NCBI GenBank assembly: GCA_001816475.1
Contig: MHCC01000013.1
Coordinates: forward strand, 1 to 62,220
DNA length: 62,220 nt
Direction: 5' to 3'
Source: Candidatus Blackburnbacteria bacterium RIFCSPLOWO2_01_FULL_40_20
GTDB taxonomy: Bacteria; Patescibacteriota; Microgenomatia; UBA8517; UBA10165
A program made the position numbers and the translations under genes. The stretch's first letter is position 1, and every line of letters starts with the position of its first letter. A model generated the notes under the pieces. That model did no database searches. It worked only from the letters and a program-made list of their open reading frames with translations, and was not told where the DNA came from. Shown here one piece after another: positions 8,193 to 23,212 of the stretch.

Positions 8193-8194
8193 TG

Positions 8195-8986
8195 TTAAAA
8201 GGCACTACAAGTATCATGAGTTAGTGGTACTTGTCTTAATCCCCGTGATACTTTTCTTTCCAGCAACCACAACTTACTCCAAGCCAGAAACGAATGGAAA
8301 CTCATCAAAATCGAGACTAGAAAGCCTTCTGTCCCATCTCTGAAACCGCCTCTTATAATCCAATTTTGGAAAAACTTGGCTTTAGGCATTACGAGTATCT
8401 TTACAAGGCTTGACCTCTCCCCTTTATCAAACTTTGATTTTGCGTGCCAGGTTGAATAATAATCAATCTCTTTAATAAACTCACCTAAGATTTGGTGGGG
8501 ATAGTGTTCTATAAATCCATCAAACTCTCCAACTTTCCCTCGAATTTTCCACTCTTCGTGGACTATTCCTATCCACTTTCCTGCATCTCGTCGAGCCAGA
8601 CGAACAAACTTCAAGCTTGCAGTCTCTCCAAACTTTAGCTCTTTACCCCACATAAAATCTTTCCTCTTGATGCAAAATCCTTCAAAGGGAGAAGCTAATA
8701 TTTTTGAAGATATCTCATCTTTTAGTGAACTCTCTACAACCTCATCGGCATCCACAAACAGCACCCAGTCCCCTTTTGCTCTTGACAACCCAAAATTTCG
8801 TTGGGACGAAAAATCATTTTCCAAAATCCGCTGGTAGATTGTTGCATTAAATTTTTTGGCAATTTCAAGAGTTCTATCAGAAGAAAAATCATCAATAACT
8901 ATTGTTTCATCACACCACTTAAGGCTCTTTAAGCACCTTTCAATGTTTTTTTCTTCATTTTTGGCCAAAACTATTGCTGTAATCAT
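8195..8986 (-). CDS. family 2 glycosyltransferase
   Basis: ATG at 8986 (MITAIVLAKNEEKNIERCL...). The longer track ORF to 9163 runs through tRNA-Val. IVIDDFSSDRT and VDADE are GT2 motifs. Confidence 0.8.
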   Translation of the reverse strand: MITAIVLAKNEEKNIERCLKSLKWCDETIVIDDFSSDRTLEIAKKFNATIYQRILENDFSSQRNFGLSRAKGDWVLFVDADEVVESSLKDEISSKILASPFEGFCIKRKDFMWGKELKFGETASLKFVRLARRDAGKWIGIVHEEWKIRGKVGEFDGFIEHYPHQILGEFIKEIDYYSTWHAKSKFDKGERSSLVKILVMPKAKFFQNWIIRGGFRDGTEGFLVSILMSFHSFLAWSKLWLLERKVSRGLRQVPLTHDTCSAF

Positions 8987-9055
8987 AATTAGCAAGAACA
9001 AAGAACCATTATACCTTGATTCTACCACCCCAAGGCTGGTAAAATATAGGTACAG

Positions 9056-9128
9056 GGGCTCATGGCTCAGTCGGTAGAGCATTGCATTCACATTGCAAAG
9101 GTCCCAGGTTCGAGTCCTGGTGGGCCCA
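9056..9128 (+). tRNA. tRNA-Val (anticodon CAC)
   Basis: Acceptor GGGCTCA/TGGGCCC (one G-U), anticodon stem TTGCA/TGCAA with loop TTCACAT, T-arm CCAGG-TTCGAGT-CCTGG. Confidence 0.9.
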
Positions 9129-9153
9129 CATTTTACTCTGCATCTTCCCCCCA

Positions 9154-9182
9154 TTGACAACATTTTTTAAATTCTTTACATT
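9154..9182 (+). promoter_or_regulatory. sigma70-like promoter TTGACA-N17-TACATT
   Basis: -35 at 9154-9159 and -10 at 9177-9182. The downstream SD GGTGGTGA precedes the ATG at 9210. Confidence 0.5.
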
Positions 9183-9209
9183 GGATATATAAGGTGGTGA
9201 TTTTAAAAT

Positions 9210-9425
9210 ATGGCAAACGGTAAAAAGGGAGTATCAACCGGTGTAGCAGCAGCTGCAGGTGCGCTGTTCGGAGCTGCAACTTCTGCTGCTGCAATCTTTC
9301 TATCAGACAAGAAAAATAGGCAAAAGGTAGAAAGAAAAATTGAAGGAATTGCTGCCGAAGGTAAAAAGGCAGTCAAAAAGACTAAAAAGGTCGTTCGTGC
9401 AATAGAGGGCAAATCTCACAAGTAA
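9210..9425 (+). CDS. small YtxH-like protein (Ala/Gly-rich N-terminal helix, Lys-rich tail)
   Basis: GVSTGVAAAAGALFGAATSAAAIFLSDKKNRQKV resembles the YtxH family. Good SD and a downstream terminator. Confidence 0.5.
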   Translation: MANGKKGVSTGVAAAAGALFGAATSAAAIFLSDKKNRQKVERKIEGIAAEGKKAVKKTKKVVRAIEGKSHK

Positions 9426-9449
9426 AGATAATTGCTTCGAATTCGAACA

Positions 9450-9500
9450 GCCCCTTCCTCAATCAGGAAAAATTAGTGTTGTGATAGGAAGGGGATTTTT
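9450..9500 (+). terminator. intrinsic terminator
   Basis: CCCCTTCCT (9450-9458) pairs with AGGAAGGGG (9485-9493), followed by ATTTTTT. The loop is long. Confidence 0.6.
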
Positions 9501-9527
9501 TGCTAAAGTTGGTGTGCAATTTAAACC

Positions 9528-10091
9528 ATGTTTTTTAAAGGACTGACCAGTTCAATTATTGATATGCTGCAAACTATTGTTCTTGCAGTAAGTATTTTTA
9601 TGGTTAGTTATCTTTTTTTGGTACAGCCCCATCAAGTAAAAGGGCCTTCAATGTTACCAAACTTCAATGACGGCGAATACCTGCTCACAGAAAAAGTTTC
9701 TTATAGATTAGGAGAGCCAAAAAGAGGAGATGTAATAATATTTGAGGCACCTCAAAACAAAAGAGACGACTATATCAAAAGAATAATTGGGCTACCGGGA
9801 GAAACTGTAAGTGTGTCTAGCGGAAAAGTGTATGTAAATGGAAAGTTACTGCAAGAAAGCTATTTACCTGCCGATTTTAAGACACAACCAGGTGCTTTCT
9901 TAACTGAAAATCTTCAATATAAGATCCCCGATGGACAATACTTCGTACTGGGGGACAATAGGAGTCACTCCTTAGACTCGCGAGCACTTGGCCCTATCAA
10001 GAAGAAAACAATTGTTGGGAGAGCATGGCTTGTATACTGGCCAATGAATTTGACAGGATTTGTACCAAAAGTAGTTTACGCAGGAATGTGA
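9528..10091 (+). CDS. lepB: signal peptidase I
   Basis: GPSMLPN (catalytic Ser), YIKRIIGLPGE (Lys box), GDNRSHSLDSR. Confidence 0.9.
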   Translation: MFFKGLTSSIIDMLQTIVLAVSIFMVSYLFLVQPHQVKGPSMLPNFNDGEYLLTEKVSYRLGEPKRGDVIIFEAPQNKRDDYIKRIIGLPGETVSVSSGKVYVNGKLLQESYLPADFKTQPGAFLTENLQYKIPDGQYFVLGDNRSHSLDSRALGPIKKKTIVGRAWLVYWPMNLTGFVPKVVYAGM

Positions 10092-10943
10092 TCAGGCTGA
10101 GGAAAGAATTCCTTCTTTGATTTTTTGAAGTCTCTCTTCAGTATCTGTCAATCCCCCTTTGAGCACAATTAACAATCTTGTTTCTCTTTGGGAACGAATA
10201 ACTTTAACGTTAACTTTTTTGGGAGAGTTTTCTATGGTTAAAGCCTTTTTAATATCTTCCTCAAGCTTGTCAATTTCTGCACTAACCACAATAGGATGAT
10301 CTGGTGGAACTTGCGCTTTCTCAGGCTGTCCGGACTCCAGTTTCATTCTCCTTGCCAAATCTTCAGCCCTTCTAACCGATCCGGATTCCTTAAGAACAAT
10401 TTTGTACGCCCTAATCATCAATTCCTGATCGTCAATTGCTGAAAGTGCTCTTGCGTGGCCCTCCGTTATGAGTCCTGACAACAATCCATCTTTTAAGGCA
10501 TCCGGAAGTTTGAGTAAACGCAAGGTATTCGAAACATAAGAAGTGCTTTTGCCAACACGTTGTGCAATGTCTGCATTAGCAAGCCCGAACTCCTCAATTA
10601 ATCTTTCAAAGCCCTTTGACCTATCCAGTGCGTTTAAATCTACTCTTTGAACATTTTCAACAAGCGCCAACTCTAACATTCCGCGAGGAGTAGTTTCTTT
10701 AATAACAGCAGGCACGCTAGTTAGTCCTGCATGTTTTGCTGCCCTCCAGCGCCTTTCACCGGCAATTATTTGGTATCCTGCAGGGGTTTTTGCCACAACG
10801 AGAGGTTCAAGTATTCCGTGCTCTCTTACTGAATCTATTAGATCAACTAAACTTTCTGGAGTAATTACGCCACGCGGCTGAAGCGGATTTGCTTGAAGTT
10901 CTTCGATTGGAATTTGAACTGCATTCGCAATTTGGTCAATCAT
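10092..10943 (-). CDS. parB: ParB/Spo0J-family partition protein
   Basis: LQPRG..., GILEPLVV, IIAGERRWRAAK ParB box, HTH (IAQRVGKSTSYVSNTLRLL). Confidence 0.9.
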   Translation of the reverse strand: MIDQIANAVQIPIEELQANPLQPRGVITPESLVDLIDSVREHGILEPLVVAKTPAGYQIIAGERRWRAAKHAGLTSVPAVIKETTPRGMLELALVENVQRVDLNALDRSKGFERLIEEFGLANADIAQRVGKSTSYVSNTLRLLKLPDALKDGLLSGLITEGHARALSAIDDQELMIRAYKIVLKESGSVRRAEDLARRMKLESGQPEKAQVPPDHPIVVSAEIDKLEEDIKKALTIENSPKKVNVKVIRSQRETRLLIVLKGGLTDTEERLQKIKEGILSSA

Positions 10944-10956
10944 CTTGCTTTAAAAA

Positions 10957-11208
10957 TCAAATTGTTTTCACACCTACAATTTGCTTACCATATTTCGTCT
11001 TGAACTCAACAACGCCCTGTTTAACGGCATATAAAGCGTGATCTCTCCCCACCTTGACGTTATCACCTGCTGCAAATTTTGTCCCGCGCTGCCTTACCAA
11101 AATGTTGCCAGAACCCACCTTTTCCCCGCCAGAAACTTTCACTCCCAACCTTTTTCCTGGGCGTTGTGCATGTTGTCTAACTTTTCCTGCTGCTTTTTTC
11201 TTGGACAT
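10957..11208 (-). CDS. rpmA: 50S ribosomal protein L27
   Basis: KRLGVKVSGGEKVGSGNILVRQRGTKFAAGDNVKVGRDHALYA. Confidence 0.95.
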   Translation of the reverse strand: MSKKKAAGKVRQHAQRPGKRLGVKVSGGEKVGSGNILVRQRGTKFAAGDNVKVGRDHALYAVKQGVVEFKTKYGKQIVGVKTI

Positions 11209-11338
11209 CCTCCGATTTCACTCAGGACAAGTATTTTTATACCCGCCCGTATCTTATTAAAAGTCTATATCACATTTTCACGGAAGTCAATAGGACAGTA
11301 ATTTATATTTGTATATTGTATGACGGGGATTGAACCAT

Positions 11339-11656
11339 TTACTTGGAAGATATTTTTTCAATTACAACCTTTGTGTAGGAATGCCTATATCCGATCTTCT
11401 TTCTGTAACGAGACTTTGCCTTATAACGAACCACGTCTATTTTTTCCCCCTTTTCATCACTCAATATTTTTCCGACTACCCTACATCCCTTAACTGTTGG
11501 TTGCCCTATTCCAACATTCCCATCTTCAACAACAAGTAGAACTTGGTCAAACTCAATATCTTTGCCAGGTTCAGTAGACATCCTGTCCAAAAGAAGTTCA
11601 TCTCCTTCAGACACTTTGTATTGTTTTCCTCCGTTTGATATAACTGCGTATTTCAT
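11339..11656 (-). CDS. rplU: 50S ribosomal protein L21
   Basis: MKYAVISNGGKQYKVSEGDELLLDRM... is a typical L21 N-terminus. Confidence 0.95.
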   Translation of the reverse strand: MKYAVISNGGKQYKVSEGDELLLDRMSTEPGKDIEFDQVLLVVEDGNVGIGQPTVKGCRVVGKILSDEKGEKIDVVRYKAKSRYRKKIGYRHSYTKVVIEKISSK

Positions 11657-11662
11657 ACTACA

Positions 11663-12727
11663 CTATAGTATACCCGAATTCCTTCCGCCTTTCAAGGAGT
11701 GTATCGCTAAGGTTGCCATACCAATCATTGCCGACATTGAAATTAGCGATGATCCTCCTGACGAAACAAACGGCAGAGGTATTCCAGTTACCGGCATAAT
11801 ACCTAAATTCATGCCTATATTTATTGCCGCTTGAGAAAAAATACTTAAGAAAATACCTCCTAACAAAGCTTTTGTAAAAACATCAGTAGAATCTCGAACT
11901 GAAAGCACAATTTTTGAAAGCATGATTGCAAATGCCAGTAGCAACAAGCCACTTCCAACGAAGCCCAATTCCTCGCTTAGGGCTGCAAAAATAAAGTCCG
12001 TGTGGCGCTCTGGTAAAAATAAAAGTTGAGATTGCGTTCCCTGGCCCAAACCCCTACCCAAAAACTGGCCGCTTCCTATTGCTATCATGGATTGTATCGA
12101 GTTATAGCCACTCCCTAGGGGGTCTGAGGCGGGTTTCAGGTAGGAAAGTAGTCTGTCTTGTTGATAACCTGCTAGAATCTGCCAAATCAGAGGAGTGGTT
12201 AACATAAAAATTATTGCTGCACCCAGCAAATACCGAATAGGTATGCCAGCCAACAAAATCACCCCAATAAAACCTGTAAATACAACAAGTGAGCTCCCCA
12301 AATCTGGCTGCAATAAAACCAACGCAATGGCGGGAATTAAAGCTAAAACAGAATATAAGTATTTTTTATCTCCCTTTGGCCACGAGACCACTGAAGCAAA
12401 AAATAATATTGATAAAGGTTTTACAACTTCTGAAGGCTGAATAGTAAAAAAGCCTAGATTTATCCAACGAACAGCCCCGTGGCTAACAAATCCAAAAACG
12501 AATGTTATGACAAGTAAAATAATCGAAAGTAAATAAAAAATTCCAGACAAGGACCTCAAAACCCTTAAATCAATTTGCGAGAATAACAAATAGGTTAACA
12601 ACGCCAATCCCAAATTAAAAAATTGCTGGGGAAAAGATTTTGGAGAAACACTCGACAATATTACAGTGCCCAAAATTGTCAATAACAGAGCTGGTAAAAA
12701 AAGGAACCAATTTACACGTAGATTCAA
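11663..12727 (-). CDS. rodA: SEDS-family peptidoglycan glycosyltransferase (RodA/FtsW-like)
   Basis: QPSEVVKP, LQPDLGSS, LPERHTDFIF, GIPLPFVSSGGSSL are SEDS signatures. It lies outside the dcw cluster, hence the RodA-like call. Confidence 0.8.
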   Translation of the reverse strand: MNLRVNWFLFLPALLLTILGTVILSSVSPKSFPQQFFNLGLALLTYLLFSQIDLRVLRSLSGIFYLLSIILLVITFVFGFVSHGAVRWINLGFFTIQPSEVVKPLSILFFASVVSWPKGDKKYLYSVLALIPAIALVLLQPDLGSSLVVFTGFIGVILLAGIPIRYLLGAAIIFMLTTPLIWQILAGYQQDRLLSYLKPASDPLGSGYNSIQSMIAIGSGQFLGRGLGQGTQSQLLFLPERHTDFIFAALSEELGFVGSGLLLLAFAIMLSKIVLSVRDSTDVFTKALLGGIFLSIFSQAAINIGMNLGIMPVTGIPLPFVSSGGSSLISMSAMIGMATLAIHSLKGGRNSGIL

Positions 12728-12728
12728 G

Positions 12729-15584
12729 TTACTCTCCTTGCAGAACTTCGAACGCGTCGCCTTGGCGAATACTGCTTATATTTGCTCTTTGTTTTAACCA
12801 CTTCATCAATTCTGGATTTTGAGGAATCCAAGTCGCAACCACAGAAACTTCTACCTCTCTTGCTGTTTTTAACTTCTTTCTTTCTTCTTGAATTTGTCGC
12901 GCCAATTCACGCGCTTTACCTTCCTCTTCAAGCTCTGGAGTAATTAAAGTATCAAGGTTTAAGGCAACTTCATCAACATTTTCGTCTTTTTTCCAATCAA
13001 CAGATTTTACATTCAGTTCCTCTTTTATTAATTGAAGTATCTCATCCGGCAATTTTTCTAAATTGCATTTCACCTTCACGCCACTTAAGGGTTGGCGTAC
13101 TGGAATCCTGGCATCTTTTCTCGCTGCATGGCCTTTTTCTACGATTTTTCGTGATAATTCCATCTTTAACTCTAGCTCAGCGTTATATTCGTCTTTTTCA
13201 AATTCTGGCCAACCAGATAAATGAACGGACTCTTTGCCTGTTAAATTCCGGTATATTTCCTCAGTTATAAATGGAGCAAACGGCGCAAGCAACCTAGTCA
13301 ACTTAACCAAAATGTTCCAAAGTGTAGAATATGCTGCTTCTTTGTCTTCTCCGTTTGAAGCACTTGGGCCTATTCTGTCCCGACTCCTTCTCACGTACCA
13401 CAACGAAAGATCTTGAACTAAAATCAAAACAAGGCGAGATGCCTCTGTAGGATCATATTCATCCAAGGATTTTGTTATGTTCCCAAGTCCACCACTGAAA
13501 CGGGAGTTAATCCATTTATCAAGAACGCTTGTCGATTTCACTAGTTTGTTGGGCGACCAGTTGTCCGCTATTGCATTAATCACAAAGAAGTTGTAAACGT
13601 TCCAAAGAATCCTAAAAAACTGTCTTGAAATATCTTCTATATCTTTTTCTTGAAATTTATAAGGTAAGCCAATTTTTACAGATGAATAAAAATAAAACCT
13701 AACACTGTCTGCACCATACTTATGCATTACCTCCATTGGGTTCACAACGTTGCCCACAGACTTACTCATCTTGTGACCGTTTTTGTCCAAAACCAAATTG
13801 TGGGAAATAACGTTTTTGTACGAACATTGACCTTTGTAGAGTGTACTCAAAGCAAGTAAAGTGTAGAACCAACCTCTTGTTTGATCTTGACCTTCTGCAA
13901 TAAAATCTGCAGGAAACTGTTTTTTATCGTCTATCTTCTCCTGGTTCTCAAACGGGTAGTGCCATTGAGAAAAGGGCATGGATCCTGAGTCAAACCACAC
14001 ATCAATAAGGTCTGTTACGCGAGCCATTTCTTCACTACAATCTGGGCATTTAAAAGTTATATCGTCAACATGGGGCCTGTGCGGATCAAAATTCGCGCCA
14101 AGAACCTCCTTATTCCCACTAAGTTCTGATAATTCTTGGAACGAACCAAGGACTTTAACGTGATTATTTTTACACTGCCAAGCGGGAAGCGGCGTTCCCC
14201 AATAACGAAACCTTGAAAGTGACCAATCAACCATCCCTTCGAGCCATTTTCCCATTCGGCCGTTTTTTATGTGTTTCGGAACCCAGTTTATTTTGTTATT
14301 TTCTTCTAATATTTTTTCTTTTTCTTTTGTAGTTCTTATAAACCAAGAGCTAATCGCGTAATACAAAAGAGGAGTTTTGCAACGCCAGCAAAATGGATAT
14401 GAATGAGTTATTGTTTCGCTCTTATAAAGCAAGTTGCGGGATTCCAGCTCTTCCATCACTTTGGGATCTGTTTTTTTAACAAATTCCCCTTTCCAGAACT
14501 CTACCTCATCTGTGAACATACCCTCCTCATTTACCAAATGGTGCATCGGTAACCCAAATTTTTTACCCAGTTCAAAATCGTCCGCTCCGTACATTACTGC
14601 AGTGTGAACAATGCCAGTTCCGTCGGTTAAAGAAACAAAGTCAGCGGGATATATTTGATAGGCTTTTTCTCCAAAATCGTGAAACTTGTACAAAGGTTCA
14701 TATTTTTTACCAACCAATTCCTCACCCCTTACTTCCCTTATCACTCTTACATCCCCAACAACCTCCAACCTCTCTTTTGCTAAAATAAATACCTCATTGT
14801 TTACTTTAGCCTTAACATAAGTTGCCCCAGGATTAACTGCCAAAGCCACATTTGCAGGTAGCGTCCAAGGGGTTGTTGTCCAAACTAAGAAAAAAGCGTC
14901 CTCGTCAAGAAGCTTAAACTTTATGTAAATTGAAGGGTCTTCTGCGTCTGCATATCCCAAAGACAGCTCATGAGACGAAAGTGGAGTTCCGCATCTTGGG
15001 CAATAGGGAACAACTTTGTAGTCTTTTTCTAAAAGTCCTTTATCAAAAAAGTCTTTTAATATTGCCCAGCAACTTTCAACATACTTCTTTGACAGCGTTA
15101 CGTAAGCATCATCTATGTCTATCCAAAAGCCCATCCTGTCGGTTAACACTTTCCAATCTTCGACGTATTTAAAAACCGACTCGCGACAAAGTTGATTAAA
15201 TTTGGAAATCGATGCCTTTTTATCTCCTGGGACAATGTTTTCTATCCCCTTTTTCCCGGAAATCCCCAGTGCTTTTTCAACTTCTATCTCAACCGGTAAA
15301 CCATGAGTATCCCATCCACCTCGACGCAAACAATACTCCCCTTTCATAGTGTGATACCTAGGAAATAAATCTTTAAACGATCTTGCAAGGACATGGTGAA
15401 TTCCCGGTTTCCCATTTGCCGTTGGTGGACCTTCGTAAAAAACATAGTTTTTACCATTTTTGGTCATATCACACGACTTTTCAAATATTTTGTTCTCGCG
15501 CCAGTACTTAAGGATTTCTTCCTCAAGCTTTGGGAATTCAATTCTCGGGTCAACTAGTTTGAACTTTTTGGTTTTTTCTGACAT
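12729..15584 (-). CDS. ileS: isoleucine--tRNA ligase
   Basis: PTANGKPGIHHVLARS (HIGH region), WTTTPWTLPAN, HKMSKSVGN (KMSKS); 951 aa. Confidence 0.95.
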   Translation of the reverse strand: MSEKTKKFKLVDPRIEFPKLEEEILKYWRENKIFEKSCDMTKNGKNYVFYEGPPTANGKPGIHHVLARSFKDLFPRYHTMKGEYCLRRGGWDTHGLPVEIEVEKALGISGKKGIENIVPGDKKASISKFNQLCRESVFKYVEDWKVLTDRMGFWIDIDDAYVTLSKKYVESCWAILKDFFDKGLLEKDYKVVPYCPRCGTPLSSHELSLGYADAEDPSIYIKFKLLDEDAFFLVWTTTPWTLPANVALAVNPGATYVKAKVNNEVFILAKERLEVVGDVRVIREVRGEELVGKKYEPLYKFHDFGEKAYQIYPADFVSLTDGTGIVHTAVMYGADDFELGKKFGLPMHHLVNEEGMFTDEVEFWKGEFVKKTDPKVMEELESRNLLYKSETITHSYPFCWRCKTPLLYYAISSWFIRTTKEKEKILEENNKINWVPKHIKNGRMGKWLEGMVDWSLSRFRYWGTPLPAWQCKNNHVKVLGSFQELSELSGNKEVLGANFDPHRPHVDDITFKCPDCSEEMARVTDLIDVWFDSGSMPFSQWHYPFENQEKIDDKKQFPADFIAEGQDQTRGWFYTLLALSTLYKGQCSYKNVISHNLVLDKNGHKMSKSVGNVVNPMEVMHKYGADSVRFYFYSSVKIGLPYKFQEKDIEDISRQFFRILWNVYNFFVINAIADNWSPNKLVKSTSVLDKWINSRFSGGLGNITKSLDEYDPTEASRLVLILVQDLSLWYVRRSRDRIGPSASNGEDKEAAYSTLWNILVKLTRLLAPFAPFITEEIYRNLTGKESVHLSGWPEFEKDEYNAELELKMELSRKIVEKGHAARKDARIPVRQPLSGVKVKCNLEKLPDEILQLIKEELNVKSVDWKKDENVDEVALNLDTLITPELEEEGKARELARQIQEERKKLKTAREVEVSVVATWIPQNPELMKWLKQRANISSIRQGDAFEVLQGE

Positions 15585-15599
15585 ATTACCAATTCTAAC

Positions 15600-15625
15600 A
15601 AAAAACCAGCTTTTAAGCTGGTTTT
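15600..15625 (-). terminator. intrinsic terminator 15 nt upstream of the ileS AUG (attenuator terminator)
   Basis: Minus-strand RNA AAAACCAGC-UUAAAA-GCUGGUUUUUU. The core is 5 G/C-rich bp, extendable by up to 4 A-U pairs, followed by a U6 run. Confidence 0.65.
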
Positions 15626-15651
15626 GTGAATTTGACTACAAGAAACCAGCA

Positions 15652-15717
15652 TCAAGCTTTGTAGGCAATGATGATTCTGATTTCGTTAATAGCCACAATT
15701 TTCAACATTGATGTCAT
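15652..15717 (-). CDS. candidate ileS leader peptide, 21 aa, MTSMLKIVAINEIRIIIAYKA
   Basis: Own translation of the minus strand. There are 6 Ile codons, including AUC-AGA-AUC-AUC-AUU. The UGA stop lies 1 nt before the antiterminator arm GCUGGUUU. No clear SD. Confidence 0.5.
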   Translation of the reverse strand: MTSMLKIVAINEIRIIIAYKA

Positions 15718-15888
15718 TTTATTCTACACTGCTTTCAAATGTCAATTTTTTAGACATAATAACCTAGTATTTCTCGCCAAAATTTGATTTCTAGTTCAAC
15801 TTCCGAATATTCGAGTCTTTCACGTTGTTCTGAAATATGATCCTCTTGTTCTTTTGCCATTTCTTTGACTATTTATCTACCATGTCTC

Positions 15889-15943
15889 AAAAATGCCGGG
15901 ATCTCCCTTCGACTTCGCTCAGGGTAAACTTCTCGATCCCAGG
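15889..15943 (-). terminator. terminator-like hairpin directly after the ftsZ stop
   Basis: Minus-strand CCUGGGAUC...GAUCCCGG (8 bp with one bulge, large internal loop with an inner CCCU/AGGG stem), followed by CAUUUUUG. Confidence 0.4.
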
Positions 15944-15945
15944 TT

Positions 15946-17109
15946 TTAGCGCCCTTGGCGCAAAAACGCTGGTATCTCGAACTCTTCTCCCCACTCATCT
16001 TTCCCATTAGGCTTTTTGTTAACTTCTTCTATGGTTTGAGTTGGCTCTTCTTTCTTGTCAATTACATTTTTATTTACTTCTCCTACCAATCCTGCTGTTT
16101 GTTCAACCGGCTTTGGGCGAGATACGTTAACCATTCTTCCCAGTTTTGATCGCATTTGGTCAAATCCAGTTGCAACAACTGTAATTCTTAGTTGATCTGA
16201 TAGTTTTTCATTAATTGTTGCTCCAAAGATTATATTGGCATCAGCGTCCACCGTTTCAGAAATAATTCGCGCCGCCTCATCAACCTCGTTCATTGTCATG
16301 TCCAACCCTCCGGCAATATTAAACAGAACCCCCTTTGCGCCTTCTATAGAAAGATCAAGAAGTGGAGAGGATATTGCGGCACGCGCTGCCATTTGGGCCC
16401 TATTTTCACCAATTCCAGTACCAATCCCCAACAAGGCCGACCCTGCATCTCTCATAATAGTTCTAACATCTGCAAAGTCTACGTTTATAAGGCCTGGGAT
16501 AGTAATAATTTCTGCAATCCCCTGAACTCCTTGGGTTAAAACTGAATCAACCACTTTAAATGCGTCCAAGAGTGACACTTTACGGTCGATTACATCCATC
16601 AAACGCTGGTTGGGAATAACGATTAATGCGTCCACGCAATCTGCCAATTTTTCAATCCCGTCTTCTGCAGAAACTGCACGTCTGGCTCCCTCGAAAGCAA
16701 AAGGTTTTGTAACGATAGCAACGGTTAAGGCTCCTGATTCTCTTGCAATTTGCGCAACAACTGGAGTTGCCCCAGTTCCTGTTCCACCACCCATACCTGC
16801 AGTTAAGAAAACCATGTCAGAATCAATAAGAAGTTCTTTTATTTTCTCGCGAGATTCCTCAGCAGCTTTTTGACCGACCTCGGGATCTCCTCCAACACCA
16901 AGACCTCTCGTAATTTTTTCACCAATTTGAAGTTTTGTGTCCGCGCTGTTATTGAGAAGTACTTGTGCGTCGGTGTTCATCGCTATGAACTCAACCGCGT
17001 CAATCTTAATCTCATGGATCATGTGGTTTATGGCATTTCCACCCCCACCTCCAATTGAAATAACTTTTATTTTTGCCAACCTTGACGTATCCGGCTTAAC
17101 TAATGCCAT
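15946..17109 (-). CDS. ftsZ: cell division GTPase FtsZ
   Basis: GGGGGNAINHM and GMGGGTGTGATPVVA tubulin signature. Confidence 0.97.
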   Translation of the reverse strand: MALVKPDTSRLAKIKVISIGGGGGNAINHMIHEIKIDAVEFIAMNTDAQVLLNNSADTKLQIGEKITRGLGVGGDPEVGQKAAEESREKIKELLIDSDMVFLTAGMGGGTGTGATPVVAQIARESGALTVAIVTKPFAFEGARRAVSAEDGIEKLADCVDALIVIPNQRLMDVIDRKVSLLDAFKVVDSVLTQGVQGIAEIITIPGLINVDFADVRTIMRDAGSALLGIGTGIGENRAQMAARAAISSPLLDLSIEGAKGVLFNIAGGLDMTMNEVDEAARIISETVDADANIIFGATINEKLSDQLRITVVATGFDQMRSKLGRMVNVSRPKPVEQTAGLVGEVNKNVIDKKEEPTQTIEEVNKKPNGKDEWGEEFEIPAFLRQGR

Positions 17110-17121
17110 ATAATAAAGCCC

Positions 17122-17149
17122 ATTTTAACATCCATTAGCCAAATTGCAA
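17122..17149 (-). promoter_or_regulatory. sigma70-like promoter TTGCAA-N16-TAAAAT for ftsZ
   Basis: -35 at 17149-17144 and -10 at 17127-17122 (minus strand). Only 12 nt separate the -10 box from the ftsZ ATG (17109). Confidence 0.45.
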
Positions 17150-17215
17150 TACAGACTTGGCCCAGTTATTTGCATGGTGTGGAAAAAAGAATTAGTGGGG
17201 TATAATTGATAACGC

Positions 17216-17845
17216 ATGAAGTCAAAAGTTTTCTTTTTCTTATTAAGTTTAAGTTTTGCGTTTCTTTTTTTCATTTTTACATATGCAGCTAAAAGAAATC
17301 TCTTTCAAGTGTTTGATTTTAATTTGACAGTAAAAATCCAAAATCGTACTTCATTAAAAGTGGATGATTTTTTGTCATCATTTAGTGCGTTGGCTTCGTT
17401 TGAAATTACTGCGCTGTTACTTTTCTTAATAATATTGGCAAGAAAAAAACTGCTTGGTTTTGTTGCACTAGTTGCTTTTGCAGTAATTCATGTCGTCGAA
17501 ATTTACGGGAAAACTCTACTTGACCACCCAGGTCCCGCAATGATGTTTTATCGCTCCGGCACTGTTTCTTCTATATTTCCTCAGTGGTACGTACATCCTG
17601 GTTCGTCTTATCCTTCTGGCCATAGTCTGAGAATAGTATTTTTGGGTTTACTAATTGCATACATGATTATTATAAGCAAAAAATTGAGTTTTAATACAAA
17701 AGCCCTTGCCAATCTTTTTATAGCAAGCATAGTTTTCTTAACTCTATATAGTAGAATAAGTCTAGGGGAACACTGGCCATCAGACGTTATCGGTGGATCT
17801 ATGCTTGGAGCAAGCGCAGCCTTATTTTCTCTTATTTTCTTTTGA
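17216..17845 (+). CDS. PAP2-family phosphatase (possible undecaprenyl-diphosphate / lipid phosphate phosphatase)
   Basis: YPSGHSLR and SRISLGEHWPSDVIGG are PAP2 motifs C2/C3. About 6 TM segments. Confidence 0.8.
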   Translation: MKSKVFFFLLSLSFAFLFFIFTYAAKRNLFQVFDFNLTVKIQNRTSLKVDDFLSSFSALASFEITALLLFLIILARKKLLGFVALVAFAVIHVVEIYGKTLLDHPGPAMMFYRSGTVSSIFPQWYVHPGSSYPSGHSLRIVFLGLLIAYMIIISKKLSFNTKALANLFIASIVFLTLYSRISLGEHWPSDVIGGSMLGASAALFSLIFF

Positions 17846-17848
17846 GTA

Positions 17849-19126
17849 TCAAGGAAGCAGTTTTTTGAACAGATCACTAAATTTCCCGACCGCGCCTTTA
17901 ACGGGCAAATCTTTGCCTATTTTTGAAAATATCCCAGTAGAAGTCCACTTTGGCGCAGTCTCTTGCTCGGTAATCCCAAAAAACAAAAGTCCAACACAGG
18001 CTGCGAACGCAGGATTTTCTACTTCCTCAATCAATCCAGTTACTCCCTTCGGAAAGCCGATCCGTGCCGGGAGCGATAACATTCGCCGCGCCGACTCTTG
18101 AGTACCTATACAAAGCGCACAACCGCCTGTAACTACAACCCCTGACGGAACTTTACCTATTACACCCTTGCTTGAAAGTTCCATTGCTACCATTGTAAAA
18201 ATCTCATTTAGTCGAGGTTTAATAATTCCATCTATTAAAGTTTTTTGGGATATTCTTTTTTCTCCATCCTCAATTCCAAGTTTTGTCATGTCCAAATCGT
18301 CTTCTGTTTCTAAATCTTCCGAGACTTTCTTTTTAGGGTTACTCAACGTGACTTTTAATTTTTCTGCAGACTCTAGAGATATTCTCAAACCCGCAGCAAT
18401 ATCATTAGTCACATTTTTTCCACCAATTGGAAAAACTGAAGAATGTATTATGGCGCCTTCCACAAATGCAGTTATCGACGTTGTTCCGCCTCCAATGTCG
18501 ATTAATACTACTCCTAACTCTTTTTCCGTATCTGTCAAAACTGAGAAACTTGAAGCAAGACCTGAAAAAACTAAGCCGTCTGGCACAATTCCCGCTTCAG
18601 AAATACATTTTGTGATGTTTTTTGCAGCAGTTGAGGATCCAGTAATCAGATGAGTTTGCACCTCAAGTCTAACACCACTCATTCCTTCAGGATCCTTAAC
18701 TTGTGTTTCGCCATCGACTTTATATTCTCGAGGAATTACATGCAAAATTTCCCTCGATTCAGGCATAGACATGGCACGCGCTGCGTCTATTACACGATCA
18801 ACATCCCCCGGCCCTATCTCCCCAGACGGATATGAAACCGCAACAACCCCGTGAGAGTTCTTAGATTCAATGTGTCCCCCACCGATCGTTACAAAGGCAT
18901 GGTCAAGGCTGTATCCAGCCATCCTTTCTGCTGACTCCACAGAGTTTATTACAGCCGAGGAAGCCTCATCGATATCAACAATCTGACCTTTTCTTACACC
19001 CTTTGAATCAACGGACGAAACTCCAACAATACTTATTTTTTCCTCTTCCTTGTTAAACTGAGCTATAAGAGTCGAGACTTTTGAAGATCCTATATCTATT
19101 CCTGCGATAACTTTTGCTTTGGACAT
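17849..19126 (-). CDS. ftsA: cell division protein FtsA
   Basis: Actin-like ATPase: GIDIGSSKV, VLIDIGGGTTSI, GVVVTGG. Confidence 0.95.
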   Translation of the reverse strand: MSKAKVIAGIDIGSSKVSTLIAQFNKEEEKISIVGVSSVDSKGVRKGQIVDIDEASSAVINSVESAERMAGYSLDHAFVTIGGGHIESKNSHGVVAVSYPSGEIGPGDVDRVIDAARAMSMPESREILHVIPREYKVDGETQVKDPEGMSGVRLEVQTHLITGSSTAAKNITKCISEAGIVPDGLVFSGLASSFSVLTDTEKELGVVLIDIGGGTTSITAFVEGAIIHSSVFPIGGKNVTNDIAAGLRISLESAEKLKVTLSNPKKKVSEDLETEDDLDMTKLGIEDGEKRISQKTLIDGIIKPRLNEIFTMVAMELSSKGVIGKVPSGVVVTGGCALCIGTQESARRMLSLPARIGFPKGVTGLIEEVENPAFAACVGLLFFGITEQETAPKWTSTGIFSKIGKDLPVKGAVGKFSDLFKKLLP

Positions 19127-19129
19127 ACT

Positions 19130-19852
19130 TTAAAACCTTAATACTGGATTACTATATCTCAAATCAATAATCCTTGGTAATTTACTATCAATTCTACTTC
19201 GTGTCAGGATCAATTGTAAAGCACCAACCAAAACTTGTGGATTTTTGTCTAGTGGAAAGAAAACTTTGGTACTATCAGCCAACTCTAGACTGAACACGTT
19301 ACCATCATAATATCCTTGACTCACACCTTGTGTTTTTTCTACCAACGACATGATCTGAACTGCTTGCGCGAATTCCTCTCCCAAAGACTTTCCAATAACT
19401 AAGGCCGCAGAACCTTCCTTGATAACGATCACAGACAAAGCGGTGTCGGAGGCAAATTCAATTACATTCGCATCTTGATCAACTAAAAAAACGCCTCTTG
19501 GTTGAACATCCATTTTCACTGCCACAATCGGTTTCTTCTTTTCCAAAACAACTACTAGCGTGTTGGGGAAAACCTTTTGTATAAAAACTCGTCTATTGCT
19601 AGAAAAGCGTTCGCCCAAACTTTTTACTAAGTTTTGGTTTAGAGTAAACAAATTTTTTCCTTTAAATTGGTAAAACATCTCAGTTTCCTGATCTGTGCAA
19701 ATACCGTACTGAGTTTTGCAATTTATTGATTCAATTGCAAGAAAGTTGCTCCTAAAAAGAAGTGCTCCTACAAAAAATAGAAAAATACAAACTACAATCC
19801 AAACAAAATTTCCACTTATTATTAGTCTGATTTTTCGGGCAATTTTACGCAT
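19130..19852 (-). CDS. ftsQ: FtsQ-type cell division protein (POTRA domain)
   Basis: N-terminal TM segment plus a POTRA-like region; located between murG and ftsA. Confidence 0.7.
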   Translation of the reverse strand: MRKIARKIRLIISGNFVWIVVCIFLFFVGALLFRSNFLAIESINCKTQYGICTDQETEMFYQFKGKNLFTLNQNLVKSLGERFSSNRRVFIQKVFPNTLVVVLEKKKPIVAVKMDVQPRGVFLVDQDANVIEFASDTALSVIVIKEGSAALVIGKSLGEEFAQAVQIMSLVEKTQGVSQGYYDGNVFSLELADSTKVFFPLDKNPQVLVGALQLILTRSRIDSKLPRIIDLRYSNPVLRF

Positions 19853-20946
19853 TAGGCTACCTCTTCCAATAAGGCTACTATCCCAGAAGCCGCCGAAGGT
19901 GGGACTAGTTTTTTCGCTAAAGAAGCGTTTTCGCTATAATTTTTATATTCATTAGTTATTTTTTCAACGGCTTGGAATAATATATCGGGAGTCAAATTGC
20001 TTTCAAAAATTATTATCGCAGCGCCCATATCCTCCAGCAATTTTGCGTTCTTAGTTTGCTCATCAGACTCGCTCCAAGAAATAGGGATAAGAATTGAGGG
20101 AATTCCTAGTGCCGCTAACTCACTCACAGTATTTGCGCCAGCCCTAGAGATGACAATTGAAACCTTTTTATATATTTCTTCAACTTCCCGAGGAGTGAAA
20201 TTAGCAGATACGAGATAATTATCTGAAGCCTGTTTTGACATGCTTTCTTTCTTTTCCATAGTTATTAAAAAATCAAGTTCTCCAGTTTGGTGAATTACTT
20301 CGCCCAATCGCGTTAGTTTATCAACAACTTTTGCCACGTTTTGATTTATAATTTGCGAACCCCTACTTCCTCCCGTAATGTAAATAATTGGCTGATCGGC
20401 CCTTACTTTTCGCGTGTCAGCTACTTTAAAGATCCCATATCTTACTGGATTTCCCGTCAACACAACCTTATCTTTAGGAAAATACTTGGAGCTTTCTTCA
20501 AATGAAATAGCGACATATCGAGCTGTTTTAGAAACTAGTCTGTTTGCAAGTCCTGAGGCTGTAGTTTGTTCATGAATAATAACCGGAATTCCCAATATCC
20601 AAGCCGAGACAGCAACTGGTACTGAAATATAACCCCCAAACGATAAAATGACATTCGGCTTTTCCTTTTTAAGTATCGAAAAGCTTTGACAAAAACCCAA
20701 AGCAAGTTTCCAAATATCGACAATATTTTCCACAAAAAACCTCCTTTGCAGCTTGTATGTCTTTATTGTATAAAACGGCACCTTTGTCTTTGGTAGAACC
20801 TGAGCTTCTAAGGTTTTTGCGTTCTGTCCACGAACAGCCTTTTCCTCACCAATCCAGCAAATCTCCCATCCACCTCTTTTTTGCAATTCTTCGATAACTG
20901 CAAGTCCAGGAGTAAAATGACCACCAGTTATTACGACTTTTTTCAT
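19852..20946 (-). CDS. murG: undecaprenyldiphospho-muramoylpentapeptide beta-N-acetylglucosaminyltransferase
   Basis: VITGGHFTPGLAV, ITGGSRGSQIIN, RAGANTVSELAALGIPSILIP. Confidence 0.9.
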   Translation of the reverse strand: MKKVVITGGHFTPGLAVIEELQKRGGWEICWIGEEKAVRGQNAKTLEAQVLPKTKVPFYTIKTYKLQRRFFVENIVDIWKLALGFCQSFSILKKEKPNVILSFGGYISVPVAVSAWILGIPVIIHEQTTASGLANRLVSKTARYVAISFEESSKYFPKDKVVLTGNPVRYGIFKVADTRKVRADQPIIYITGGSRGSQIINQNVAKVVDKLTRLGEVIHQTGELDFLITMEKKESMSKQASDNYLVSANFTPREVEEIYKKVSIVISRAGANTVSELAALGIPSILIPISWSESDEQTKNAKLLEDMGAAIIIFESNLTPDILFQAVEKITNEYKNYSENASLAKKLVPPSAASGIVALLEEVA

Positions 20947-20970
20947 AATTCTGTAGCGCAGCGAAAGATA

Positions 20971-22074
20971 TTAGTGCGCGCTTTTCCCTCCATTTTTTGA
21001 AATGTTTAGCAAAATCCCAACTGCAGTTAAGCTTATGGTTAGCGAGGATCCACCGTAAGACAAAAAGGGTAAAGGAACACCAGTCAAAGGAACTAACGCC
21101 ACGATTGCAGAAAAGTTAATGAAAGCCTGCACTCCAATTAAGGATGTGATGCCTACCGCCAGAAGCTTTCCAAAACTATCGTTTGTCCGCATTGCAAGCC
21201 TTAGCCCTCTCCATATTATAAACAGAAATGCCAATAAAATCGCTGAAGTTCCGAGGAGTCCTAATTCCTCCCCTATTACCGCCAAAATTGAGTCAGTTGC
21301 AGGTTCCGGTAAAAAAAGATACTTTTGCCTTGACTGCCCCAGCCCAACTCCCAAAATTCCTCCAGACCCGAGAGCTAGCAAAACTTGTCTAATGTGGTAG
21401 GAGGAACCCAGAGGGTCTGATGCTGGATTAAGAAAGGTAAGTAATCTCTCTTTTCTATAGCTTGATGTTAAAACAAATATTAACCCGAGAAGACCACCAA
21501 TTGGCAACATTGACATGAAGTACCGAATAGGAGCACCACTTGAAAAATAAATAATAACTGAAGTTATTGCAATTATTCCAGCTGTTCCCAAATCAGGCTC
21601 AAGCATTATAAGACCAACTGGAATTGATACTGCAAAAGCAAAAGACAAAAAATCTTTTTTGATTGAAAGTAGGGTTGCTAAATAAATTACTAGGGTAAGC
21701 TTTAGCAGTTCCGATGGTTGGATAACAAGAGGACCGAGATCTACCCAACGACGTGAGCCATGAAGAACCAGTCCAATCCCTGGAACTAAGGGTAAAACCA
21801 GCAAAATTAAAGATCCAAAAAAAAGTGGTAATGAAAATTTTTTTAGTAATTTATAATTAAATCTTGAAACTAAAAACATCGAAATTAATCCCAAAAAAAT
21901 CCAAAAAAGTTGATGTTTGCCGAAGTAGAAACGGTCTCCGAATGTGCGAGTTGCGTCAACTACAGAAGCATCCGTTACCATAACAACCCCAAAAATCGCC
22001 AATGCAAGAACTGTGATAAGAAGTTGCTTGTCGAGCATGGCACGATTACCAATAAATTTAGAAGTATGTTTCAT
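20971..22074 (-). CDS. ftsW: SEDS-family lipid II flippase/glycosyltransferase FtsW
   Basis: IQPSELLKL, EPDLGTA, LPEPATDSI, GVPLPFLSYGGSSL; located within the dcw cluster. Confidence 0.9.
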   Translation of the reverse strand: MKHTSKFIGNRAMLDKQLLITVLALAIFGVVMVTDASVVDATRTFGDRFYFGKHQLFWIFLGLISMFLVSRFNYKLLKKFSLPLFFGSLILLVLPLVPGIGLVLHGSRRWVDLGPLVIQPSELLKLTLVIYLATLLSIKKDFLSFAFAVSIPVGLIMLEPDLGTAGIIAITSVIIYFSSGAPIRYFMSMLPIGGLLGLIFVLTSSYRKERLLTFLNPASDPLGSSYHIRQVLLALGSGGILGVGLGQSRQKYLFLPEPATDSILAVIGEELGLLGTSAILLAFLFIIWRGLRLAMRTNDSFGKLLAVGITSLIGVQAFINFSAIVALVPLTGVPLPFLSYGGSSLTISLTAVGILLNISKNGGKSAH

Positions 22075-22081
22075 ATATAGA

Positions 22082-22141
22082 GAAGTACCACAAGCCTTTT
22101 TGCCCGTGGTACTTGTGGTACTTTTTATTCCCGTGGTACTT
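22082..22141. repeat. cluster of four AGTACCAC/GTGGTACT 8-mers (three direct, one inverted) in the mraY-ftsW spacer, able to form a 12-bp hairpin
   Basis: Plus strand: AAGTACCACAAG (22083-22094) pairs with CTTGTGGTACTT (22112-22123). CCCGTGGTACTT occurs at 22103-22114 and 22130-22141. Confidence 0.85.
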
Positions 22142-22144
22142 TAA

Positions 22145-23182
22145 TCAAATCACTGCCAACCACAAACCCAATATTGCTAAAATAATCCCAGCAAGCCATG
22201 TCCTCATAACTATTTTTGGCTCCTCCCAACCAGCCTTTTGCAGCCAAAGATGAATAGGTGCCATTGGCAGAATTGGCATTCCCAGGTACCTTCTACTCAA
22301 TATTTGAGTTAAGCTACTCATAATCTCGACTACAAAAATTCCACCAATAATAACCAAGGCGAGTATTTTGCCAGTTAACAATCCGATTACAGCCAACGTT
22401 GCGCCAAAAGACATAGCACCGCTATCTCCCATAAAAATCCTTGCGGGCCAAATATTAAAATAAAGAAACGCAATTAAGGCACCTATCCAAAGAGAAATAA
22501 ATATTGATAAAGGCGTGTCAAAAACTTTAGATGCGATAATCCAAAATGCAAAAAGGCATATTAATAAAACTCCGGCAGCTAACCCATCCAACCCGTCTGT
22601 AATATTAACTGCGTTAACAAAAGAAACAATCGTAAAAGCAGCAAGTGGTACATACCAAAATCCCAAATTAACCACTGTTTCAAATATTGGTATGTGAATT
22701 ATTGAAATATTTAAATTTTTGTAGATAAGGAGTGCAATCGTGAAGGCCAAGATCCATTGAAGCGCAAACTTATGCTTTCTTCGCAAGCCAACCCACATGC
22801 CAAGTTTTCCTTGTTCCATCTTTCCAAATAATTTAACAAAATCATCGTAAAACCCAAGGAGTGCAAACGAAAGAAAGGTGAAGAAAATTATTTGAATTTC
22901 TGAAGTTACATCAAACGCAGCGTACATGTATACACCCAAATAGGACACCAGCGGATAGACAATCGCAAAAAGAATCGAAACCGAAGCAACAATTATTATG
23001 CCACCACCCACAGGAGTTCCGGCTTTTTTGTCGTGCATCTTATCGAACAAAGGAACTTCACCCTTTTTAGGAGCTTCGACGCGCCTTGTAAAACGAAGTT
23101 TATAAAGAAGATTAATAAAAGGAACTATCAAAACCGCAGTTAGAGCAAAAGAAAACATCAAGAGACCAAGATCAAGTGCCAT
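22145..23182 (-). CDS. mraY: phospho-N-acetylmuramoyl-pentapeptide-transferase
   Basis: NAVNITDGLDGLAAG, FMGDSGAMSFGA. Confidence 0.95.
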   Translation of the reverse strand: MALDLGLLMFSFALTAVLIVPFINLLYKLRFTRRVEAPKKGEVPLFDKMHDKKAGTPVGGGIIIVASVSILFAIVYPLVSYLGVYMYAAFDVTSEIQIIFFTFLSFALLGFYDDFVKLFGKMEQGKLGMWVGLRRKHKFALQWILAFTIALLIYKNLNISIIHIPIFETVVNLGFWYVPLAAFTIVSFVNAVNITDGLDGLAAGVLLICLFAFWIIASKVFDTPLSIFISLWIGALIAFLYFNIWPARIFMGDSGAMSFGATLAVIGLLTGKILALVIIGGIFVVEIMSSLTQILSRRYLGMPILPMAPIHLWLQKAGWEEPKIVMRTWLAGIILAILGLWLAVI

Positions 23183-23212
23183 ACCACACTAATCATACCA
23201 AATCTCCCCTGC

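Follow-up and report, generated by a model that had tools for sequence, protein, structure and literature searches.

Genes and sequence elements between ftsZ and ileS

The window analysed here is the whole 62,220-nucleotide stretch of contig MHCC01000013.1 from Candidatus Blackburnbacteria bacterium RIFCSPLOWO2_01_FULL_40_20, with a G+C content of 38.5%. On its minus strand, ftsZ ends at 15946 and ileS, the gene for isoleucyl-tRNA synthetase (IleRS), starts at 15584. The spacer between them (15945..15585) holds the subject of this work, a module composed of a short, isoleucine-rich leader open reading frame (ORF) and of RNA segments that are predicted to form either an intrinsic terminator or a competing antiterminator hairpin directly upstream of ileS. 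A previous sequence-only reading of this DNA had proposed that ileS is controlled here by attenuation through an Ile-rich leader peptide. The ORF, its Ile cluster and UGA stop, three RNA segments (1 to 3), a U6 run and the 15-nt gap before ileS all lie on the minus strand exactly where that reading had placed them; the spacer, which it had put at 360 nt, measures 361 nt. The elements to which we refer below are the following.

12729..15584, minus strand: ileS, the putatively regulated gene, encoding a 951-residue isoleucyl-tRNA synthetase (read from the ORF list).
15716..15745, minus strand: promoter P1, TTGACA (15745..15740), an 18-nt spacer and TAAAAT (15721..15716).
15652..15708, minus strand: leader ORF, predicted to be leaderless, with 18 codons plus UGA, MLKIVAINEIRIIIAYKA; predicted start ATG 15708.
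15667..15681, minus strand: Ile codon cluster AUC AGA AUC AUC AUU, read from the sequence.
15669..15684, minus strand: segment 0, the 5' arm of a predicted anti-antiterminator hairpin, GAAAUCAG (15684..15677) plus CAUCA (15673..15669), overlapping the Ile codons.
15642..15654, minus strand: segment 1, UGAUG (which includes the UGA stop) plus CUGGUUUC, a partner of segment 0 or segment 2.
15617..15625, minus strand: segment 2, AAAACCAGC, a partner of segment 1 (antiterminator, 8 bp) or of segment 3 (terminator).
15600..15610, minus strand: segment 3, GCUGGUUUU (15610..15602), and the U6 run; with segment 2 it forms the predicted terminator hairpin (15625..15600).
15592..15600, minus strand: candidate promoter P2, an extended -10 element TGtTAGAAT that overlaps the end of the U-run and is followed, after 7 nt, by the ileS ATG.

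The closest named relatives of both IleS and FtsZ are bacteria of the Microgenomates group of the Candidate Phyla Radiation (CPR), such as Woykebacteria, Amesbacteria and Blackburnbacteria. The IleS homologues carry the Pfam domains tRNA-synt_1, Anticodon_1 and DUF5915, and their source name is isoleucine-tRNA ligase. An exact-sequence look-up with the IleS of the window returned no record; among GTDB genomes and JGI metagenomes, the IleS relatives were at most 50-59% identical and none had a comparable Ile leader. The informative relatives (loci L109-L115) were reached via FtsZ similarity. At least three groundwater data sets have given independent assemblies of the same organism (L109-L111), and since the spacer is 100% identical in all three, the region is not an assembly artefact. 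Groundwater samples that contain this organism are ERZ28563625, JGI 3300002502 and PRJNA268031 (SRR1658344). A second lineage, represented by L113 and its strain variant L115, comes from two different samples and has an FtsZ 87-88% identical to that of the window. The ileS start of this lineage is found on L103, a contig from the same sample as L113, whose IleS is 72% identical to that of the window. IleS identities place the window and L112 as sisters (80%), with L103/L113 as the outgroup (72-74%); L104-L108 are more distant relatives (IleS identity 67-69%). Further FtsZ relatives are found at 79-82% identity.

An isoleucine-rich leader ORF downstream of the strongest promoter of the region

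P1 is the only strong sigma-70-like promoter of the ftsZ-ileS spacer. It scores 11 out of 12 and is the top site in 1..20000, with one other site of the same score in 20001..40000. Its counterparts are TTGACA-17-TAAAAT in L113/L115 and TTGTAA-17-TAAAAT in L112 and L114.

The leader ORF had first been drawn from 15717 to 15652 on the minus strand, with 21 codons (MTSMLKIVAINEIRIIIAYKA). Its frame, its Ile codons and its stop (UGA, 15654..15652) are borne out by our analysis; its start is not. The first two bases of ATG 15717 lie inside the -10 hexamer of P1, so that the transcript cannot include this codon, and no in-frame ATG exists further upstream in L113; we thus rejected ATG 15717 as the leader start. 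The next in-frame ATG, at 15708, is located exactly 7 nt downstream of the -10 box and gives an ORF of 18 codons. The start of the leader ORF lacks a Shine-Dalgarno motif and its ATG lies 7 nt past the -10 box in both lineages, a distance that has been kept even though the intervening bases differ between the window and L113. The leader ORF likely starts at ATG 15708 and is likely read as a leaderless mRNA.

Isoleucine accounts for 6 of the 18 codons of this leader, with four Ile codons within five and two more at 15699..15697 and 15690..15688. Such a density is exceptional in this genome: at least four Ile per five-codon window are found in 9 of 124,412 six-frame windows (7e-5) and in none of the 16,790 windows of the window's real proteins, where Ile makes up 7.9% of the residues. 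Codon choice is also biased. All 12 Ile codons in the leaders of the two lineages are AUY and none is AUA (P=0.012), a codon that represents 31% of the Ile codons in the genes of the window. Of the regions upstream of ileS in 106 unrelated loci, two (L050 and L093) contained a short ORF with four or more Ile in five codons. Both look incidental, the one of L050 overlapping the promoter upstream of a T-box.

RNA segments, terminator and predicted structural switching

The sequence-only reading had described three RNA segments, with segment 1 as GCUGGUUU at 15650..15643, and had let segment 2 pair with either segment 1 or segment 3. These pairings hold (they also appear as inverted repeats I1 and I3); the scheme was incomplete, as an additional segment 0, embedded in the Ile codons, pairs with segment 1. 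In the minimum free energy (MFE) fold, GAAAUCAG pairs with CUGGUUUC (15649..15642) and CAUCA with UGAUG (15654..15650). The locus therefore has the full four-segment layout of the trp type, with the alternative helices 0:1, 1:2 and 2:3. The folding z-score of the 146-nt region is -2.77.

To represent the translating ribosome, a footprint of 28 nt was blocked in each transcript, which was folded as far as the position immediately preceding segment 3. Without a ribosome, the 0:1 hairpin forms, with a free energy of -21.4 kcal/mol for this prefix in the window and -23.4 kcal/mol in L113, and the full-length MFE structure combines the 0:1 hairpin with the terminator (-33.3 and -32.1 kcal/mol, respectively). 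With the ribosomal A-site at an Ile codon, the predicted structure of the window becomes the 1:2 antiterminator (-12.0 to -12.5 kcal/mol); the same is predicted at the Ile run of L113 (-13.2 to -14.4 kcal/mol, and to -20.4 kcal/mol at the upstream Ile codons). With the A-site at the stop codon, segment 2 is held weakly (-5.4 kcal/mol in the window, -3.2 kcal/mol in L113). A ribosome in this position covers segment 1, and the terminator can therefore form; the free energy of the terminator hairpin alone is -12.1 kcal/mol in the window and -10.1 kcal/mol in L113, where it is followed by U7. The predicted folds thus behave as a classical attenuator in both lineages.

In a scan of both strands of the 62 kb for hairpins ending in at least six T, the terminator was the second strongest (-12.3 kcal/mol in that scan), with a strength close to that of the hairpin following the gene that ends at 2701. 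This stricter scan replaced a simple terminator scan, which returned no more hits in the window than in shuffled sequence and in which the hairpin at 15625..15600 was not listed, likely because extension of the stem through A:U pairs consumes the T-run. The U6 run ends at 15600, 15 nt upstream of the ileS AUG (15584).

We also noticed that UGGUUUUUU (15600-15608), which comprises segment 3 and the U-run, is perfectly complementary over 9 nt to AAAAAACCA (15569-15577, ileS codons 3-6; inverted repeat I6). If this pairing formed on read-through transcripts, it would place the ileS AUG in a loop of 22 nt. L103 does not conserve the match, which may simply be a trivial one between poly-U and poly-A.

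Conservation of the module in a second lineage

Directly 3' of ftsZ, L113 and L115 carry TTGACA-17-TAAAAT, followed after 7 nt by an ATG. The leader of L113 reads ATG CAA GUA AAU UUU CUA GGA AUU AUU GAA CCA GCA AUC AUC AUU AUU GAU GAG GCU UAA (MQVNFLGIIEPAIIIIDEA), that is 19 codons of which 6 specify Ile, with a run of four. Past the stop follow UGCUGGUUC, a 21-nt loop, GGACCAGCA, AAAAGA and GCUGGUUUUUUU. All four segments are present in both lineages, segment 0 of L113 being represented by GAACCAGCA, which pairs with UGCUGGUUC. The core shared by the window and L113 can be written GAA..CAG.AAUCAUCAUU....GCUU(G/A)AUGCUGGUU....ACCAGC...AGCUGGUUUUUU, and the stop codon abuts segment 1 in both (GCU UGA UGCUGG in the window, GCU UAA UGCUGG in L113). 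The alignment of these relatives is thus in line with what attenuation predicts, in that the Ile run, the frame, the position of the stop and the segments have all been kept.

The remainder of the module has diverged. This applies to the ORF in its 5' half, to the remaining peptide sequence and to the loops, such as the one that separates segments 1 and 2. Between the window and L113, no more than 7 of the 19 peptide positions that can be aligned are identical, and the substitutions include radical ones (Y/D, K/E, R/A and I/P). The RNA pairing has been preserved through this divergence. The 1:2 antiterminator of the window has 8 bp and that of L113 has 9 bp, and the pairs beyond its GCUGG/CCAGC core are U-A, U-A and U-A in the former and U-A, U-G and C-G in the latter; the third pair thus shows a compensatory change from U-A to C-G, with GGACCAGCA as segment 2 of L113. 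Similarly, UUU in segment 1 of the window corresponds to UU in L113, and this difference is mirrored by AAA and AA in segment 0. The inner CAUCA/UGAUG helix draws on a different UGAUG in each lineage, and the MAFFT alignment of the two leaders is one column out of register in the 0:1 helix. This pattern fits selection on the reading frame, the Ile codons and the RNA pairing, and not on the protein product.

Segments 1 and 3 belong to a degenerate direct repeat with 40-nt spacing, and the spacer holds other local duplications. Duplication may be the source of the alternative pairing; that L113 has retained it, with a compensatory change, argues for its maintenance.

The distribution of the module among relatives gives some indication of its history. 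L112 has kept the promoter and a plain 5' untranslated region (UTR) of about 135 nt, and the module is absent from it. The tail of L113 and the start of L103 are homologous to the 5' UTR of L112, and in the L113 lineage the terminator is situated about 130 nt upstream of ileS, with no leaderless-type promoter evident at the ileS ATG. As the window and L112 are sisters with L103/L113 as their outgroup, the module goes back to the ancestor of this small clade, and two of the three branches have retained it. The simplest history suggested by these comparisons is that the module was present in the common ancestor, that it was lost in L112, and that the intervening UTR was deleted in the lineage of the window. 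A profile search with nhmmer found no further copy of the module in the window or in 115 loci, and no viral contig scanned matched the pattern of the conserved core.

The additional UTR stretch of about 130 nt covers 5208-5327 in L112, 5320-5376 in L113 and 1-33 in L103, and is absent from the window. In L112 it contains two hairpins, CAAAATAC...GTATTTTG and CCCATTTAA...TTAAATGGG, the second of which ends 9 nt before the ATG.

Leaderless gene starts and a second candidate promoter

It had been stated that no promoter fits downstream of the terminator and that every ileS transcript must therefore cross it. This does not hold for the window, where the extended -10 element of P2, TGtTAGAAT (15600..15592), lies 7 nt before the ileS ATG, in the same geometry as at 12 of the 49 gene starts. 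These 12 starts have TAnnnT ending 5-9 nt before the start codon, a configuration found at 9.5% of background ATG triplets (P=0.0018). None of them has a Shine-Dalgarno-like tetramer, and TGn precedes the hexamer in 4 of the 12 (6.2% in the background); the -35 box is poor in most. The full motif TGnTAnnnT occurs 5-9 nt upstream of 0.9% of all ATG triplets of the window. The leader ATG (15708) and the ileS ATG both fit the leaderless pattern. The frequency of such gene starts suggests that leaderless mRNAs are widespread in this CPR genome.

Leaderless-type starts of the window include those at 1988, 6353, 17216, 23182, 24475, 30592, 31225, 35009 and 59822. A Shine-Dalgarno-like motif is present at about 15 of the 49 starts, and about 22 of the 49 have neither a Shine-Dalgarno motif nor a -10 box at leaderless distance.

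A leaderless-looking ileS start recurs among the relatives. In L104-L108, TTGTAA or TTTCTA is followed after 17-18 nt by TACAAT and, 8 nt further, by the ileS ATG, without any leader, and the spacers are as short as 38 nt; in L114, TAAAAT is followed after 7 nt by the TTG start of ileS, again without a leader. The P2 motif is not conserved in L112 or L103. In the window, P2 probably gives a basal leaderless ileS mRNA, an activity that we infer from its sequence and position.

Comparison with RNA families and repeats

The sequence-only reading had seen no T-box here, and our searches agree. Rfam searches at gathering score with the whole window and ten relatives returned tRNAs and noise, and no T-box or leader family; with the spacer of the window and the leader of L113, no T-box appeared even at E-values up to 10. 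Stem I, the specifier loop and the T-box bulge were not seen in the leader; a T-box sequence is visible, by contrast, in the unrelated Clostridia-type loci L040 and L050. A T-box or any other curated RNA family was thus ruled out at the Rfam threshold. The best sub-threshold match, obtained for the L113 leader (5251-5327), was Trp_leader (RF00513; 25.8 bits, E=0.0024, gathering score 41), which is consistent with the same fold layout and not with membership of this family.

We similarly rejected an origin as a repeat, a miniature inverted-repeat transposable element or an insertion sequence end, as the terminator palindrome occurs once in the window and nhmmer detects no other copy of the module. 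Tandem Repeats Finder found nothing, and the IS200-type transposase insertions of relatives, described below, have no sequence in common with the module.

A proposed ribosome-mediated attenuator of ileS

Taken together, we interpret the module as a transcription attenuator of the classical, ribosome-mediated type, through which charged tRNA-Ile is sensed and read-through into ileS is controlled, a reading to which we assign a probability of roughly 0.7. It is carried by the sequence elements, by their conservation in a second lineage and by the predicted switching between structures. In silico, a promoter and a short ORF lie on the strand of ileS, the ORF contains a cluster of cognate codons, and a predicted intrinsic terminator follows; the terminator has a mutually exclusive antiterminator, an upstream hairpin reaches into the regulatory codons, and the stop is placed so that a ribosome would mask segment 1. 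The central idea of the sequence-only reading, attenuation by an Ile-rich peptide with mutually exclusive terminator and antiterminator, thus gains support from the module of L113/L115 and from the folds with a blocked footprint.

From these elements we infer the transcription start sites, the leaderless translation, the termination and the response to Ile in the following way. RNA polymerase would start at P1, at or beside the A of ATG 15708, and the transcript would therefore be leaderless. It would be translated at once into an 18-residue peptide specified by 6 Ile codons, four of them within five. In the absence of a ribosome, segment 0 would bind segment 1, leaving segment 2 to pair with segment 3 next to the U6 run and to terminate transcription. 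A ribosome reaching the UGA would cover segment 1, again with termination as the outcome. If Ile-tRNA were scarce, a ribosome stalled at the AUC and AUU codons would keep segment 0 melted and segment 1 exposed; the latter could then capture segment 2 before segment 3 is made, so that no terminator would form and the polymerase would enter ileS 15 nt further on. The weaker extended -10 element P2, at the end of the terminator, would probably provide basal leaderless ileS mRNA, to which the attenuator would add inducible expression. This two-promoter design, in which a basal extended -10 promoter in the U-run is combined with the strongest promoter of the region feeding a leaderless, Ile-sensing attenuator, is a tentative extension of the model that we consider less probable than attenuation itself.

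Several points weigh against attenuation. The model rests on sequence comparison and predicted folds, including for the translation of the leader ORF. Only two independent lineages carry the module, and the covariation between them consists of a single double change plus a few changes on one side of a pair. Since AAUCAUCAUU, which is conserved, provides Ile codons as well as the arm of a helix, part of the Ile signal could be structural, and some of the alternative pairing could have arisen by duplication, given the direct repeat of segments 1 and 3. The sister L112 has lost the module, and ileS of L104-L108 and L114 is leaderless and devoid of a leader; the element is therefore dispensable. 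Finally, ileS has no Shine-Dalgarno motif for translation from a read-through mRNA and has a plausible promoter, P2, downstream of the terminator. Read-through transcripts may thus contribute little to IleRS synthesis.

The most serious alternative is one that we regard as improbable. The P1 transcript could be a stand-alone unit of about 110 nt with a terminator of its own, either a small RNA or the gene of an 18-residue micro-protein; the terminator would merely shield ileS from upstream transcription, ileS would be expressed from P2 only, as a leaderless mRNA, and the Ile codons would be a by-product of the AUCAUCAUU helix arm. P2 (TGtTAGAAT, 7 nt, ATG) is indeed arranged like the other leaderless-type gene starts of this genome, ileS of distant relatives is expressed without a leader from a -10 box that precedes its ATG by 8 nt, the lack of a Shine-Dalgarno motif leaves ileS ill-suited to internal initiation, and L112 does without the module. 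However, in L113/L103 the module is located about 130 nt upstream of ileS and the P1-type promoter is the only evident promoter of this gene, so that its transcript must cross the terminator. Moreover, a simple terminator has no need of a conserved competing partner for its 5' arm, of a stop codon kept at the edge of this partner or of a compensatory change in the competing helix. The lack of conservation of the peptide speaks against a micro-protein, and the enrichment in Ile codons extends beyond the helix arm, to positions that are not homologous between the two lineages.

A second alternative retains the switch between terminator and antiterminator and dispenses with the ribosome: an RNA-binding protein, or an uncharged tRNA acting in a T-box-like manner through UGGU, would operate it, and the ORF would be irrelevant. 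The alternative helices are indeed conserved, UGGU is present in segments 1 and 3 and is complementary to the ACCA 3' end of tRNA, and in other phyla a T-box typically controls ileS, the Clostridia-type loci L040 and L050 being examples. Nevertheless, the module resembles no Rfam family even at the permissive E-value and displays none of the T-box landmarks. Regulation of this kind would also leave unexplained the conserved ATG at leaderless distance, the open frame, the position of the stop and the Ile enrichment, and we consider it quite unlikely. Least credible of all is a functionless product of chance duplications in an AT-rich, rearranging spacer, for although several degenerate direct repeats occur there (segments 1 and 3 at 40 nt, TTGACAT/ATGACAT, the duplicated ftsZ 3' end), the site varies among relatives with IS200-type transposase insertions, and Ile-rich short ORFs also occur upstream of 2 of the 106 unrelated ileS loci, the Ile run is very rare in this genome, the spacer is no assembly artefact, and the comparison with L113/L115 shows an architecture kept across about 72% IleS identity while the surrounding non-functional sequence was randomised.

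Other features of the ftsZ-ileS junction

The 3' end of ftsZ is duplicated (repeat D1; 15945-15978 and 15872-15905, minus strand). The real end encodes ...EIPAFLRQGR*, and a copy with 74% identity, 73 nt downstream, encodes EIPAFLRHGR*; the second looks like the relic of an older ftsZ 3' end left after a rearrangement. Within this duplication lies TACCCTGAGCGAAGTCGAAGGG, of 20-22 nt (15905-15926, minus strand), which is the reverse complement of a conserved stretch of the rplU-rpmA intergenic region of L105 (7842-7861), L106 (7726-7745), L107 (7429-7448) and L108 (7756-7775). In these four relatives, the stretch follows a promoter-like TTGACT-17-TAAACT and is able to form pairs with GGTGAGCGAGCCGAATGG at the start of rpmA; it may correspond to an rpmA leader structure. 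The rpmA leader of the window itself contains the related CCTGAGTGAAATCGGAGG.

Between the putative ftsZ relic and P1 there is a 36-codon ORF, MAKEQEDHISEQRERLEYSEVELEIKFWREILGYYV (15750-15860, minus strand), which is a called gene in L109 and has no Pfam match. It is flanked by a 13-nt inverted repeat (15745-15757 and 15882-15894) with 92% complementarity, and is absent from L113, where the counterpart of P1 starts 25 nt after ftsZ. In four relatives, a gene for an IS200-type Y1 transposase (PF01797) is inserted in opposite orientation (L104 3158-3856, L106 1403-2101, L108 2165-2851 and L114 3269-3952), exactly between ftsZ, or a KTI12/AAA_33 gene following ftsZ, and the ileS promoter. Insertion and rearrangement have therefore recurred at this junction within the clade.

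Relation to known attenuators and significance

The best-known classical attenuators are those of enterobacteria, trpL, hisL, leuL and ilvL, to which pheM, located before pheST, adds the leader-peptide control of a synthetase. The ileS element shares with them a promoter, a short ORF rich in cognate codons, four segments (1:2/2:3/3:4), a stop at the edge of the second segment and an intrinsic terminator, predicted here, that precedes the structural gene; like pheST, ileS encodes the synthetase of the very amino acid that would be sensed. Unlike the enterobacterial leaders, the ileS leader has no Shine-Dalgarno motif, and the transcript apparently begins with the leader ORF. Further differences are the amino acid (Ile), the gene (ileS), the Microgenomates-like CPR host and the possible second promoter over the U-run. 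There is no sequence homology between them, the sub-threshold Trp_leader match of L113 being the only resemblance of this kind.

The sequence-only reading had considered peptide-based control of ileS as unusual, a view that has to be tempered, since it is not unprecedented. Classical attenuators have been predicted upstream of trpS and leuS in Streptomyces (PMC1262725), and leader coding sequences precede trpS, for which leader-peptide control is known or predicted, and ileS in Caulobacter crescentus, the one of ileS being named in a figure legend as CCNA_03934 (PMC4117421). As in the present case, a short ORF lies upstream of a synthetase gene, in bacteria of other phyla; for Caulobacter ileS, the likeness is one of upstream position, as given by that name. 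In mycobacteria, leaderless polycysteine short ORFs attenuate cysteine genes (bioRxiv 10.1101/834739; Mol Microbiol 2020) and, as with the ileS leader, a leaderless 5' short ORF rich in cognate codons acts as the sensor. The ileS element, for its part, has a canonical hairpin with a U-run and a four-segment switch, and would sense Ile on behalf of a synthetase gene.

The T-box riboswitches of ileS are found in Firmicutes, with translational variants in Actinobacteria (PMC1262725). The element described here would share with them the gene, the signal (charging of tRNA-Ile) and the choice between terminator and antiterminator. In contrast to them, it has no Stem I, specifier loop or T-box sequence, and sensing would take place through the translating ribosome and not through direct binding of tRNA. 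The classical attenuator is thus an already known kind of element. Its novelty lies in the CPR host, in a leaderless leader ORF being joined to a canonical terminator, and in a promoter that may be present inside this terminator.

CPR bacteria, or Patescibacteria, are uncultivated and cannot make their own amino acids, and to our knowledge almost nothing has been learnt of their gene regulation. If our interpretation is correct, they would monitor the charging of tRNA-Ile by ribosome stalling instead of a T-box, an attenuation device could start from a leaderless mRNA, and ileS would join the short list of synthetase genes under leader-peptide control. Should the two-promoter design also be true, which we consider doubtful, the reduced translation systems of Patescibacteria would support coupling-dependent, ribosome-mediated attenuation from leaderless initiation, presumably of the 70S type, and this would be the first cis-regulatory RNA switch described for them within the literature that we searched. 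The element is compact, with about 110 nt, and could be tested in vitro or in a surrogate host. Finally, its loss in a sister lineage and its differing distance from ileS could illustrate how such switches are gained, moved and lost in the course of evolution.

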